From the IMG/VR virus record IMGVR_UViG_2526164619_000006, positions 1-16,119 of that record: a stretch of 16,119 nucleotides of DNA. One strand, given 5' to 3'. Positions 1 to 16,119 of this stretch are shown here, one piece after another. The notes below the pieces were generated by a model. The model ran no database searches. It worked only from the letters and a program-made list of their open reading frames with translations, and was not told where the DNA came from. Every line of letters begins with the position of its first letter. The stretch's first letter is position 1. This stretch comes from a virus (taxonomy: Duplodnaviria > Heunggongvirae > Uroviricota > Caudoviricetes). The position numbers and the translations under genes were made by a program.

Positions 1-938
1 TCAAATAACCAGCTTAACCCATTCCTGACCTCGAGTATCGTTATAGCGATCGGTGGTTGCCTGGACTTTATGTCCTAGTAATGTTTTTGTATCGATACCC
101 TGTGCACGGTACAGCCGTTCTGATAGAGAGCGTTGTTCATGAAATGTTGGCGGAGTTTTTCCTGCTGGTGAAATTATCCCAGCCAGATCCCGTGCTTTGG
201 CAAAGTAGTCGCTCAGGTTGTCTTTACTCATCGGCTTCGGTTGTTTCTGGTGCCGACTATGGATTAGATATGGACTTAATATTCTGTCTCGGCACCCATC
301 AATAACTTCTTTTAACGTTATCCCAATGGCATCACAGCGTAGTGTAAGCGGTAACGCCAGACGCATTCCGGTTTTTCCCAGGGTGATATGCAAGTGTTCG
401 TTCCACACATCTGAAAAACGCATGTGGCAAATGTCATCACGGCGCTGACCAGTAACAATCGCAAGAAGCATTGCGTTACGGATAAAGTGTTTTTCAGGCG
501 TTGCATTGTAAATTTTTTGCCAGTCTTCCATGGTGAGCCTGGCTCTGGTTACTTTAGGGATCGGTTTACGGGTAGCCTCCGGAGGATTCCATCCAGGAGG
601 AACTTCCCCTGCATGCTGTGCTTCTTTATAAATATCAACCCATAATCCACGATTTACTCTCGCTGTGCTGACCATGTCTTTATCCAGCCACTCATCCAGT
701 ATTAATGCAAAGTCTCTTACTTCCAGTTCTTTCAATGGGTGGTTTCCCAGACGGGAAACCAGGTATGCAGCCATTCGAGTTTTTTCTTTGTGAGTTGTAG
801 CTGCAATATCTCCATTTTTCAGTCGCGTGTCCTGTATTTTCAGATATCGATCAACCCATGCCTTTAATCTGATACCCCGACGTTTTGTTGCTGACGGACT
901 TTCATCAATTTTGCGCATGAAATATTCAGCTTCTGCTG
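1..938 (-). pseudogene. int: Phage tyrosine integrase, C-terminal ~308 codons (gene split by IS4)
   Basis: ORF 1..918 (305 aa) resembles lambda-family integrases. The frame stays open upstream of ATG 918 (..E-Y-F-M-R-K..) to the IS4 junction at 938. Confidence 0.85.
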
Positions 939-2364
939 TAATGCCAGTCAGTTAAGCAACTGACTGGCTCTTTTTCGGGGCTGTGGGGTATTTCCAGGGC
1001 CTCTCCTTTACCACTCTCGGGAAGGCCCTTCCCCTTCTCGTCGGTAATTTCACAAGTTGCCCCATACTTGCAAGATCGCGCATCAGCTCCGGTATACGTC
1101 CCGGTGAAGCGCCCTGCAATGTCATCAGCATTCTCATCACCATTCCGCATGATTCTGAGAAACTCAGTTGATTCGGCCAGTAACCTTTCAGATGTTCCGC
1201 CATTTTAATCATCTGATATCTCACCAGATTATAAGCCAGTAAGACACCCCACAGCTCTTGCTCCACAAGCTCCGGCTTTTTACTTCTCAGCGTCAGCCTG
1301 CTCAGTTGCATCGTCTGTTTTATCTCCCTGTATCCCAGTTCGATTTCCCAGCGATGACTGTACAGATCCGCCATTTCTCCTCCGGGGAAGCGCATGGCGT
1401 CCGTCATCGACGTCAGCAGATGGCAGACTTTTCCTTTGCGCGTCACGGTCAGCAGGCGGGCTGTCACTTCATTTCCCAGTCCCGGCCACTTTTTTCGTGC
1501 CTGCGGGCTGGTTTTCAGCTTCACCAGATGATCGCCTTTACCCAGTTTTCTGAGCTCTTCATATTGCGCTCCCTTTCTGAGAGGTATCATCCAGTGGCGG
1601 TGTTCTCCCGCCAGGCTCCAGGCATTTAACAGTCCCAGTGAGTAATAACCTTTATCCATTAACGTCAGAGTGTTATCGCCGGTTTGTTCTATAAGTTGCT
1701 CAGCAAGCTCATTTTCGCTGTTCTTCATCGTGCCGAAGGCTGCAGCCGTCAGCAGATGGCTGGTCAGTTCCATCTGGCAGACCATTTTGACCTGCGGGTA
1801 GAGCGCCGGGTTCCCGGCATGTGTCTGGCGGGGGAAGGCTGCATCGTTCTCTGGTGTATCCGGTGTGCGCCAGAACACACCATCGATGGCCAGCAGGGTC
1901 AGGCCGCACCAGTGCGAATGCGGCGTGGCGTTATGCCAGAGCTGCGCTGTTTTCGTGAACATGCGGCGAACAGCCTCACTTCCCAGGTGCTGGCGGGCCT
2001 GAATAACGGCACTGGGGGCAACGAAGGGGCGATTGCCCGGCAGCATGATGTCCAGGCGATTCACAATCTGGTGAAGAGGTTCTTTACGCTCAAGCGCCAT
2101 GCCAACAATACACCAGACCATCATTTCGAGGGGAAGACGGCGCTTGCGTAGCGTTACAGTACCTGATTCGGCAAGGCAACGAGAGATGAGTTCGGGGTCG
2201 AGGTAATCCCCCAGAGAAGTCAGTGGGTTACGCAGAGAATCGTAACGGGATACCAGATCAAGAGCCTGTCCAATGTGCATAAAAAAATCCGGAAACAAGT
2301 GAGCGTTTCCGGATTCTTACACAGCCACTGGATCGGTCAACTGATCCTTAACTGATCGGCATTA
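939..2364 (-). mobile_element. IS4, complete copy (1426 bp)
   Basis: Imperfect terminal inverted repeats taatgccagtcagttaagc (939..) and taatgccgatcagttaagg (reverse complement ending 2364). Flanked by a perfect 12-bp direct repeat cagcttctgctg at 927..938 and 2365..2376. Length matches IS4 as I recall it. Confidence 0.9.
952..2298 (-). CDS. insG: IS4 transposase (DDE family)
   Basis: 448-aa ORF matching IS4 transposase from memory ([26 protein letters not shown]..). The true start may be the internal MHIGQ Met. Confidence 0.88.
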
Positions 2365-2557
2365 CAGCTTCTGCTGCAGCTATTCGCTGATTGGCTGTGG
2401 AAGCGATTTTTTCTGCCTTACCTTTGTCTGTTCCGAGTCCGTGAAATTTTCCAGTCACAGGATTTTTATACTGGTAGTAAACTCTGCCAGTTCTGCGATC
2501 AAACTTTTCGTAAAGACCGGCTACGTCAGTGCTGTTTTTTCGTGGCCTCGGTGACAT
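2365..2557 (-). pseudogene. int: Phage integrase, N-terminal 64 codons (upstream part of the IS4-split int)
   Basis: ORF 2348..2557 begins MSPRPRKNSTDVAGLYEKF.. and runs into the IS4 end. By mod-3 arithmetic it is in frame with the 1..938 segment once IS4 and one 12-bp repeat copy are removed, giving a ~372-aa integrase. Confidence 0.8.
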
Positions 2558-2804
2558 GAGTTAAAATCTCCTTCAGTGCATCATCATCGCCAGTATGAAT
2601 TTCCGGCGCAATTCCCGTTTCACCAGGCCCAACAAATACTGCTCGGCGATCTATCAGCCAACGCCCACGAATTTTTTGTGGTCTTGGAACGATGTATCCT
2701 AGTTTTCCGTATTTCACCAGGGTAGTGTTTGTTATTGGGAGACTGAACCGTTTTGGTTTCCACTCGTCGAGCGTTATCAGGTACTGTTCGCTCATGGCTA
2801 TCAC
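2526..2804 (-). CDS. xis: Excisionase (Xis-like)
   Basis: Small ORF directly upstream of and overlapping the int start, as in lambda. Contains YLITLDEWKPKRFS..RPQKIRGRWLIDRRAVFV, which resembles lambda Xis (YLTLQEW..). Confidence 0.7.
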   Translation of the reverse strand: MIAMSEQYLITLDEWKPKRFSLPITNTTLVKYGKLGYIVPRPQKIRGRWLIDRRAVFVGPGETGIAPEIHTGDDDALKEILTHVTEATKKQH

Positions 2805-2856
2805 TCCGGAACGCGCCAGTTGCAGAATATCAACGACAACTGGCGACGGTTGAACA

Positions 2857-3511
2857 TTAAAAATCAGCCTGACTCGCGATCAGTTTTTGCCAGATAACTG
2901 AAACGTATTTTGCCTGGTAACGGGCGTCATCAAGTGCATTATGGCGCTCACCTTCGAATGGGATAGCAGTTCTGGCATCGAAGTCTATGGCTTTCCCCAG
3001 CTCAACGATTGTGCGTACATCGCGATCGTTGTAGTAACGCCACGGGCAGGGGATCCCCTGCCGTTCGTATGAACGGCGCAAAATCGTGTTGTCGAAGTTG
3101 GCTCCATTTCCCCAGACCTGAACAAAAAATTCACCGGAGTTTTCGTCGATAAATTCCCGCAATTGTAACAGTGCATCATCTAACGGGATTTCATCGGTCA
3201 TAATGGCAGATTGCGCTTCGCGTGATTGCTTAAGCCACCATTTAATGGTGTCCCGATCAATGACCCCGCCAGCAGTTTCCAGATCGATAGTCTTACTAAA
3301 TTCCGGTCCCATATCTCCGGTTTGCGGATCGAAAAATATTGCACCTATTGAGATGATCGGGGCATCAGGATTTTTTCCCATGGTTTCAAGGTCGATCATT
3401 AGATGGTCACACGTCCTGCTGGTGGATGTGATTTCTTGATGACCATTCACCTTAATTGAGTGATCTGCCGTCTCGCCAGTTTCATTATCGCTATCGTGAT
3501 GCTGATTGCCG
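2857..3511 (-). pseudogene. C-terminal DEDDh 3'-5' exonuclease domain of a large early-operon gene interrupted by IS911
   Basis: DnaQ-like motifs are visible: MIDLETMG (Exo I), WGNGANFD (Exo II), HNALDDARY (Exo III with His). The N-terminal 9 residues of track ORF 2857..3537 are encoded by the IS911 end, so the native coding sequence continues upstream across the IS. Confidence 0.8.
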
Positions 3512-3552
3512 TGAAGTGGCACACTGAATTTGGCCACCTGAACAGAGGTGAT

Positions 3553-3885
3553 ATGCTCACCTCAGAACAACACAGGTGCTCCAATGAAAAAAGAAATTTT
3601 AGCGCAGAGTTTAAACGCGAATCCGCTCAACTGGTTGTTGACCAGAAATACACGGTGGCAGATGCCGCCAAAGCTATGGATGTTGGCCTTTCCACAATGA
3701 CAAGATGGGTCAAACAACTGCGTGATGAGCGTCAGGGCAAAACACCAAAAGCCTCTCCGATAACACCAGAACAAATCGAAATACGTAAGCTGAGGAAAAA
3801 GCTACAACGCATTGAAATGGAGAATGAAATATTAAAAAAGGCTACCGCGCTCTTGATGTCAGACTCCCTGAACAGTTCTCGATAA
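3553..3885 (+). CDS. IS911 OrfA (HTH transposase subunit); start uncertain
   Basis: Track ORF 3460..3885 contains [24 protein letters not shown]. The expected MKKRNF start ATG at 3584 is out of frame in this copy (6 As rather than 7 after the ATG). The first in-frame ATG is 3553; the track's GTG start at 3460 lies outside the IS. Confidence 0.6.
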
Positions 3886-15559: not shown

Positions 15560-15572
15560 GTGGTAAATGGGC

Positions 15573-15603
15573 GGCTGGTGGGTGTTAGGGGCACCCACCA
15601 GCC
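15573..15603. repeat. Perfect 12-bp-stem inverted repeat (hairpin)
   Basis: ggctggtgggtg / ttagggg / cacccaccagcc. No T-tract follows on either strand. Confidence 0.6.
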
Positions 15604-15644
15604 ATCTGCTCATGCGTTGGGTTCACAAGCAAAGCTCAGGCCCA

Positions 15645-15663
15645 CTGCTTTGCGCAAAAGCAG
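15645..15663. promoter_or_regulatory. Palindrome ctgctttgcgcaaaagcag, candidate operator ~35 bp upstream of the methyltransferase start
   Basis: 7-bp arms ctgcttt/aaagcag around a gcgca centre. Confidence 0.35.
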
Positions 15664-15695
15664 AATGAGCCTATCAGAGACAGGCTTAATGATTC

Positions 15696-15920
15696 ATGCT
15701 TAATACTGTAAAAATATCCAGTTGTGAGTTAATCAACGCCGACTGCCTGGAATTTATCTGGTCGTTACCCGAAAATTCTGTTGACCTGATAGTCACGGAC
15801 CCGCCGTACTTTAAAGTGAAGCCTGAGGGCTGGGATAACCAGTGGAAGGGCGACGATGATTACCTGAAGTGGCTGGACCAGTGTCTGGCGCAGTTCTGGC
15901 GGGTGCTGAAACCTGGGTAA
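15696..15920 (+). pseudogene. Beta-class DNA methyltransferase (N6-adenine or N4-cytosine), 5' fragment truncated by IS1
   Basis: Motif IV DPPY (LIVTDPPYF) lies near the N-terminus. The ORF stops at a TAA supplied by the IS1 terminus after 73 native codons. Confidence 0.75.
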
Positions 15921-16119
15921 TGACTCCAACTTACTGATAGTGTTTTATGTTCAGATAATGCCCGATGACCTTGTCATGCAGCTCCACCGATTTTGAGAAC
16001 GACAGTGACTTCCGTCCCAGCCTTGCCAGATGTTGTCTCAGATTCAGATTATGTCGCTCAATGCGCTGAGTGTAACGCTTGCTGATAACGTGCAGCTTTC
16101 CCTTCAGGCGTGATTCATA
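15916..16119 (-). mobile_element. IS1, partial (runs off the window), inverted relative to the IS1 at 8448..9215
   Basis: Starts ggtaatgactccaacttactgatag.. and by eye is identical to the reverse complement of the insB-end of the first IS1 copy. Confidence 0.9.

Follow-up and report, generated by a model that had tools for sequence, protein, structure and literature searches.

The 16,119-nucleotide stretch analysed here (the window; positions 1 to 16,119 of IMG/VR record IMGVR_UViG_2526164619_000006) very probably represents the early half, from int to Q, of a Rac/Qin-like lambdoid prophage that lies beside potC and that was dismantled stepwise, and as we infer largely neutrally, by the insertion sequence (IS) expansion typical of Shigella. 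An earlier note on this DNA, made from its letters alone, had seen that hok, rusA, a Q-like gene and a queH-like gene stay intact while mobility, immunity and nuclease functions are broken, and had suggested that this sparing reflects selection on the host. Our analysis does not support selective retention, and the anatomy of the hok locus, where an IS lies between the promoter and the start of transcription, contradicts it for that gene.

The DNA comes from Shigella flexneri K-315 (ST1512, Bangladesh; assembly GCA_000268165.1; strain table in PMC6397287), which agrees with the Shigella-type set of ISs recognised earlier. The window is the final 16.1 kb of draft contig AKMY01000016.1, which stops inside an IS1 copy at 16119. 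We compared it with the prophage of E. coli Z0117EC0117 (L002), which adjoins potC and shows no interruption across the region, with the prophage of E. coli strain 503025 (L001), also at the potC site, and with a related prophage at ompW (L003). Look-ups of junction-specific open reading frames (ORFs) added a sister sample, ERR6004966 (L007), and a contig (L019) of the sister assembly GCA_049894805.1. Genes were called broken or intact by tblastn against reference proteins, junctions were read base by base and IS names were taken from annotated records. In a BLAST comparison with complete E. coli genomes no record covered 80% or more of the window, and long collinear matches to lambdoid prophages were found instead. 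Indeed, the window minus its IS copies is collinear with intact prophages at 91-99% DNA identity (local BLAST), and int adjoins potC-potD in the contig, the same attachment site as in L001 and L002. Comparison with orthologous prophages, which the earlier note had proposed as a check, thus gave collinearity with the two potC prophages and base-exact breakpoints but no support for selective sparing. A tyrosine integrase gene that adjoins an attachment site in the chromosome, with xis and the early-left genes next in order, marks the element as a lambdoid prophage, and it is a defective one: int is split, and the repressor, cro, O-like and P-like genes are gone through a 4559-bp deletion.

Insertion sequences and damaged genes

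Six IS copies with base-exact ends occupy 6216 nt, or 38.6% of the window, close to the 40 percent estimated before for the same six elements. They are named after annotated elements with which they share 99.3-99.8% identity, and target-site duplications (TSDs) are given where present.

939-2364, minus strand: IS4, complete, 1426 bp, 99.6% identity to annotated IS4
3512-4759, plus strand: IS911 copy, orfA and orfB frames open, TSD CCG (junctions, frames)
5820-7083, plus strand: IS600 copy, 1264 bp, TSD CAG (junctions, frames)
8448-9215, plus strand: IS1, complete, 768 bp, insA and insB frames, no TSD (BLAST, junctions)
10948-12253, minus strand: IS629/IS1203-group element of the IS3 family (IS629-like), 1306 bp, TSD GCG (junctions, frames)
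15916-16119, minus strand: second IS1, inverted relative to the first, 204 nt present, cut off by the contig end and not by biology

IS4 is flanked by a 12-bp duplication, CAGCTTCTGCTG, at 927-938 and 2365-2376, and its transposase frame is open over 454 codons. Like the first IS1, it fits its family in being full length, with terminal repeats and open transposase frames. The IS911, IS600 and IS629-like copies fit the IS3 family by their TG...CA terminal inverted repeats, 3-bp TSDs and the -1 frame relation of orfA and orfB; an ALIL frameshift pseudoknot was also found in the IS629-like element by an RNA family search (11918-11802). The first IS1 has no TSD because of the deletion adjacent to it. 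Across the 204 nt available the two IS1 copies are 100% identical, and this inverted pair flanks a 6.7-kb queH-hok-rusA-Q block, an arrangement that is composite-transposon-like or inversion-prone; the orientation of the block is still ancestral.

IS1, IS2, IS4, IS600 and IS911 have expanded in all Shigella (PMC7373316). The density in the window, 37 copies per 100 kb, is 4-7 times the mean of Shigella chromosomes, which does not exceed 9.3 per 100 kb (PMC7373316); for this excess the Poisson P is 2e-4 to 4e-3, in a window that was picked after the fact. Such a density fits a dispensable region that tolerates insertions. Not every copy may still be mobile. Relative to intact copies, the IS600 orfB carries compensating +1 (6361) and -1 (6491) indels, and the IS629-like orfB is broken by a 4-bp deletion at 11673, so that two of the five complete copies would be non-autonomous if these indels are real. 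The draft, of 2012, also splits the essential gene lolC into two ORFs (265 and 133 amino acids), probably through an assembly frameshift, and we therefore treat single-base frameshifts of this assembly with caution; the 4-bp deletion calls for the same caution to a lesser degree.

The damaged genes are the following.

1-938, minus strand: int, 3' fragment, codons 62-372, stop codon at 1-3, 99.4% identity to the L002 integrase (tblastn)
2365-2557, minus strand: int, 5' fragment, codons 1-64 (tblastn, 100%)
2857-3511, minus strand: exonuclease gene, C-terminal fragment, codons ~607-823 (tblastn)
4760-5819, minus strand: exonuclease gene, middle fragment (tblastn)
7084-7806, minus strand: exonuclease gene, N-terminal fragment, codons 1-254 (tblastn)
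9216-9598, plus strand: DUF1627 gene, 3' fragment, codons 127-256 (tblastn), the truncated ORF also in GCA_049894805.1
9614-10039, plus strand: DUF977 pseudogene, TGG to TAG at codon 73 (9830-9832)
15696-15915, plus strand: DNA methyltransferase gene, 5' fragment, 73 of 349 codons (tblastn), the junction ORF also in GCA_049894805.1

IS4 splits int, IS911 and IS600 together split the exonuclease gene (823 codons, 2472 bp at full length), and IS1 splits the methyltransferase gene. The junction anatomy bears out an IS-driven decay of the prophage, and these three interrupted genes had been named correctly in the earlier note; its fourth, a gene A, was not identifiable, and the fourth damaged gene is instead that of DUF1627, which has lost its 5' half. 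Moreover, the immunity functions listed as broken are in fact absent. The sequences that flank the first IS1 lie 4559 bp apart in L002, and what is missing between them comprises DicF, ydfC, ydfB, the DUF1391 gene, the repressor gene, cro, ydaT, the O-like and P-like genes and half of the DUF1627 gene. The loss would be either an IS1 adjacent deletion or the product of recombination between two IS1 copies. DUF977 is affected by a point mutation. Its stop codon is shared with GCA_049894805.1, in which a 72-amino-acid product is called from a sequence that is 100% identical, and its occurrence in a second assembly shows that DUF977, one of the small genes, has truly become a pseudogene by point mutation.

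Several of these lesions are shared with other records. The int/IS4 junction ORF occurs in at least five other assemblies or read sets, and the sister sample L007, which reaches from the IS4 junction as far as the IS600 junction, has an unoccupied site where IS911 would be; IS911 is thus later than IS4 and IS600. According to the scenario that we favour, IS4 entered int and IS600 the exonuclease gene, which then received IS911 as its second element. The loss of DicF, of the immunity switch and of the replication genes came with an IS1-associated deletion; an IS629-like element inserted at the hok transcription start, a further IS1 split the methyltransferase gene and a point mutation killed DUF977. 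The surviving small ORFs would then be genes not yet hit rather than genes kept by selection.

A 1-nt deletion in the exonuclease gene at 5459 (T5 versus T6 in L007) was considered as an extra lesion and dropped: it lies in a T-run, it is absent from L007 and the same draft splits lolC, so that a sequencing error is possible. The terminator behind Q differs likewise, with a T8 run at 15217 where the sister assembly has T9. Such changes in T-run length at 5459 and 15217 are typical of homopolymer sequencing errors, and they are the only differences from the sister assemblies. Compared with the references, the N-terminal part of the exonuclease gene also lacks 39 bp in frame (window 7449-7459 versus L002 6504-6533), with an 11-nt repeat at the edges of the gap, which could be a slippage deletion or allelic variation. 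Outside the window, the contig runs from potC-potD directly to cobB, the E. coli genes ycfZ and ymfA being missing, and nagK, upstream of the window, is broken by an IS3-family element (AKMY01000016.1, L014 11085-19241).

Separation of hok, and probably of other genes, from their promoters

The clearest case of an intact frame that has lost its promoter is hok, for which the elements are these.

10912-10940, plus strand: hok promoter, TTGGCG-17 nt-TAGAAT, from which transcription would now enter the IS629-like element (promoter scan)
12254-12677, plus strand: hok/sok locus, mRNA body starting at the IS boundary (Rfam, Pfam, fold)
12256-12431, plus strand: hok leader/Sok region, Rfam RF01794, 121.6 bits against a gathering score of 59
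12369-12581, plus strand: mok, ORF overlapping hok
12426-12581, plus strand: hok, PF01848, 82.9 bits, 100% identical to L002 and to the HokD-annotated WP_000813254.1
12650-12667, plus strand: hok terminator and T-run (terminator scan)

The uninterrupted reference reads GTTAAGTAGAATGGCTGCG|GGTGCTTGAGG, with TAGAAT 7 nt upstream of the hok mRNA start. In the window the -10 box ends at 10940 and the start lies at 12254-12256, and the 1306-bp IS stands between them; the element ends at 12253 and the Rfam leader match begins at 12256. The minimum free energy fold of 12256-12676 (421 nt) closes the 5' end on the 3' end in the tac/fbi manner, GGGUGCUUGAGG pairing with CCUCAACGCACCC. Judging from these junctions, the IS629-like copy, with its GCG duplication, sits exactly between the -10 box and the transcription start and leaves the hok ORF untouched. 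Because the promoter is thereby separated from the start, the intact hok ORF is probably silent. Nor would the IS be expected to supply a promoter of its own, since its transposase lies on the minus strand with the orfA-proximal end facing hok and so reads away from it. In the R1 system single substitutions in the -10 box are enough to abolish hok transcription (PMC9841398), and the general view of chromosomal hok loci is that they are inactive (bioRxiv 10.1101/2025.08.07.668861).

The IS629-like/hok junction is common to a second assembly. It was found in none of the 5426 complete E. coli genomes, and the insertion is accordingly lineage-specific; nor did it occur in the GTDB representative genomes, among which Shigella is probably not a species of its own. 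In the orthologous prophage of E. coli 503025 (L001 14190-15576) and its relatives H4, H5, H16 and H17, an independent IS1203 of the same IS group and orientation starts some 50 nt beyond the terminator of hok, so that this locus has a second IS3-family insertion beside it. In K-12 the chromosomal hokA, hokC and hokE were reportedly found by Pedersen and Gerdes in 1999 to be disabled by nearby IS150 or IS186 and not by mutations in the ORFs.

The other intact features are as follows.

2526-2795, minus strand: xis (excisionase), 89 amino acids, 100% identical to L002 Xis, Pfam Exc
7899-8090, minus strand: ydfD (DUF1482), tblastn 97-98% (with dicB), Pfam
8087-8275, minus strand: dicB, tblastn 97-98% (with ydfD), Pfam
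10214-10879, plus strand: queH (epoxyqueuosine reductase, DUF208 family), 221 amino acids, Pfam QueH 221.6 bits
12749-13027, plus strand: small ORF, in the block 12749-15136 with 98.9-99.2% amino acid identity to L003
13029-14084, plus strand: DUF968 gene with an HNH-like domain (Pfam), same block and identity
14085-14450, plus strand: rusA (Pfam), same block and identity
14447-15136, plus strand: antiterminator gene Q (Pfam), same block and identity
15206-15226, plus strand: terminator-like hairpin with T8 run about 70 nt after Q, candidate tR' (terminator scan)
15348-15545, plus strand: small conserved ORF, 65 amino acids, intact (tblastn)

Several of these survivors are probably orphaned from transcription as well. 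In L002, DicF occupies 7535-7586; the deletion starts 11 bp past it, at 7524 (window 8276-8447 versus L002 7361-7586). Searches of the window for RNA genes found no DicF, no tRNA and nothing else besides hok/sok; weak matches to STnc370, P26 and STnc100 fell below their gathering scores and were disregarded. In Qin, dicB belongs to the repressed dicBF operon (PMC6832061). The dicB and ydfD genes are left as orphan ORFs: DicF and all that lay upstream of it are gone, which by analogy with this operon would include the DicA-repressed promoter. On the other strand, DUF968, rusA and Q lie downstream of IS1, of the oppositely oriented IS3-family element and of the hok terminator. If the lambdoid arrangement applies, their early rightward promoter would have been deleted with the cro-proximal region, and a promoter scan found no sigma-70-like site between the hok terminator and DUF968, although such a scan is weak evidence. 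The rusA gene of DLP12 in K-12 is described as "normally quiescent", becoming active when an IS inserts upstream (PMC1636454). It is plausible that rusA, Q and DUF968 are unexpressed here. As a whole, the promoter anatomy looks unfavourable for the expression of hok, dicB, rusA and Q. The earlier note had named lack of expression of the intact genes as evidence against its own proposal; structurally, hok is in this state, and the same is plausible for rusA, Q and DUF968.

Survival of the small reading frames

We then asked whether the survivors call for any explanation beyond their size. In the null model, 5-7 independent events fall uniformly on the rebuilt ancestral segment from int to the methyltransferase gene, about 15.3 kb. 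Together, queH, hok, rusA and Q make up 1878 bp of it, and all four escape with P = 0.40-0.52, or with P = 0.26-0.38 when the deleted region is left out of the target. The IS-damaged genes are long (exonuclease gene, 2472 bp and twice hit; int, 1119 bp; methyltransferase gene, 1050 bp; DUF1627 gene, 771 bp), and only 3 of the 1365 possible four-gene subsets reach the combined length of these four. Hits therefore track target size: long genes were struck and short ones mostly escaped, a pattern that random insertion predicts. Domestication would be recognised by an escape beyond this gene-length prediction, and under uniform insertion (P = 0.26-0.52) none was found.

The functional divide fares no better. 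That int and the exonuclease gene are broken is correct, but xis, a mobility gene, is intact, rusA is itself a nuclease gene, DUF968 is HNH-like, Q is a phage regulator and DUF977 is dead. Likewise, hok, rusA, Q and queH are full-length ORFs as claimed, at 98-100% amino acid identity to E. coli prophage orthologues and all above the Pfam cut-offs, but hok is parted from its promoter. Nor do they form a set of small cargo genes: xis, ydfD, dicB, DUF968 and two small ORFs are intact too, while the small DUF977 gene carries a nonsense mutation.

Ratios of nonsynonymous to synonymous substitution rates (dN/dS) were also considered as a means of separating selected from unselected genes.

int (reconstructed), broken: dN/dS 0.10-0.60 versus E. 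coli orthologues
exonuclease gene (reconstructed), broken: dN/dS 0.18-0.37 versus E. coli orthologues
DUF968, intact: dN/dS 0.11-0.17 (L001 and L002 comparisons)
rusA, intact: dN/dS about 0.2 (L001 and L002 comparisons)
Q, intact: dN/dS 0.2-0.3 (L001 and L002 comparisons)

For DUF968, rusA and Q, L003 was excluded as having too few differing sites for a stable ratio. All values are below 1, for broken and intact genes alike, and the sister assemblies are identical, leaving no signal within the lineage. As a separator the ratio failed: broken genes look equally constrained, and the similarity of the two groups means that the constraint predates the decay and cannot tell them apart.

Strong constraint at the protein level appears only in queH. 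Its product is 100% identical to WP_000150294.1 in both L002 and L003 in spite of about 7% synonymous divergence in the gene, with 0 nonsynonymous against 9-10 synonymous differences; it aligns to the solved Thermotoga maritima QueH (7lc5) with its Cys motifs kept. Furthermore, the uninterrupted 140-nt junction between the 3' end of queH and the hok promoter is present in 2641 of the 5426 E. coli genomes. Taken together, the protein identity in L002 and L003 and the frequency of this junction indicate that the constraint extends over the whole family, being shared by thousands of E. coli prophages, rather than belonging to this host, and queH looks like a very widespread and strongly constrained phage "moron". 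An IS within queH of a sister assembly was suspected where the L019 contig stops inside the gene; the contig end carries no IS sequence and is probably a repeat shared with another prophage, and the candidate was rejected.

With these results the explanations can be weighed. One holds that queH (tRNA queuosine maturation), hok (stabilisation or defence), rusA (Holliday-junction resolution) and Q (regulation) were kept as useful to the host while dispensable or harmful phage functions were allowed to break. Prophages are known to become domesticated, the four ORFs run over their full length and keep their catalytic motifs, including the RusA residues aligned to D70, D72 and D91 of E. coli RusA (1q8r), and the silent changes in queH and its conserved junction with the hok promoter speak in the same direction. 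However, chance suffices for the escape of all four, equally small genes that are no cargo are intact whereas small DUF977 is dead, hok is cut at its transcription start, the promoter region of rusA and Q is deleted and its K-12 analogue silent (PMC1636454), and the broken genes have dN/dS values just as low. We consider this explanation, and with it the proposal that sparing reflects host selection, unlikely. It would be equally surprising, in our estimation, if the insertion at hok and the deletion of the dicBF promoter and immunity region had been favoured for disarming Hok, DicB, YdfD and prophage induction, through loss of transcription and not through destruction of the ORFs. It is true that all three toxic ORFs are intact yet without promoters, that E. 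coli 503025 acquired its IS1203 near hok independently, and that K-12 hok loci are said to have been inactivated by nearby IS150 and IS186. On the other hand, with a single insertion and a single deletion selection is not separable from chance, an intact hok/sok is normally harmless while loss of the repressor could equally be dangerous, and the absence of the junction from all 5426 E. coli genomes gives no sign of recurrence at the exact site. A combination of the two, in which the 6.7-kb block between the inverted IS1 copies was kept for queH while its toxic neighbours hok, dicB and ydfD were silenced by IS-mediated promoter removal, seems slightly less probable still. It has a conceivable basis, as QueH, a cobalamin-independent epoxyqueuosine reductase, could secure the formation of queuosine-tRNA when vitamin B12 is scarce. 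Formation of queuosine-tRNA (tgt/vacC) is needed for full translation of VirF in S. flexneri. If this were true, a common prophage gene would be linked to the regulation of Shigella virulence, a link for which sequence conservation is the only argument.

Largely neutral erosion by ISs remains the explanation that we prefer, and four points weigh against it. Weak protection would easily escape the null test, which has no more than 5-7 events to go on. The queH gene, with its 0 nonsynonymous differences and a possible promoter of its own, may bring the host a benefit. The 1-nt indels (exonuclease gene at 5459, IS600 orfB) may be draft errors, which makes the number of independent lesions uncertain. 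Finally, hok, rusA or Q could still be expressed, either from cryptic promoters or by transcripts that start at the displaced hok promoter and read through the IS.

Likeness to known prophages and hok loci

The overall phenomenon, IS expansion acting on a dispensable Shigella prophage, is already known, and the window is a worked example of how it erodes a prophage in steps; alone, it carries little weight. It also illustrates that an intact ORF is not the same as a functional or a selected one: short genes survive by their size, and an IS at the start of a gene can silence it. The most useful detail is hok, one more probable instance of a chromosomal hok locus disabled by a neighbouring IS.

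In its layout the prophage resembles Qin, Rac and DLP12 of K-12, with int, xis, the exonuclease gene, ydfD and dicB on one strand, DUF968 (ydfU-like), rusA and Q on the other and a hok-family gene between them; those prophages, too, are defective, IS-interrupted and largely silent. What sets the prophage of the window apart from them is its position beside potC, its queH gene, the IS1-linked deletion of DicF together with all of the immunity and replication region, and the Shigella set of ISs, present at a far higher density. Its hok locus is like the IS-inactivated chromosomal hok loci in that the Hok ORF and the antisense region are intact and an IS adjoins the frame. In the K-12 loci, however, IS150 and IS186 are said to lie on the downstream side, whereas here the element belongs to the IS629/IS1203 group, sits at the 5' end and is borne on a prophage. 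The IS expansion described for Shigella (Hawkey et al. 2020, PMC7373316) matches the window in its pseudogenes made by ISs, in sites that vary between strains and in a stepwise build-up, and four of its five common elements are present (IS1, IS4, IS600 and IS911, not IS2). Between the two there is no difference in kind; the local density departs from the Shigella chromosomal mean by the factor of 4-7 that is expected for dispensable prophage DNA.

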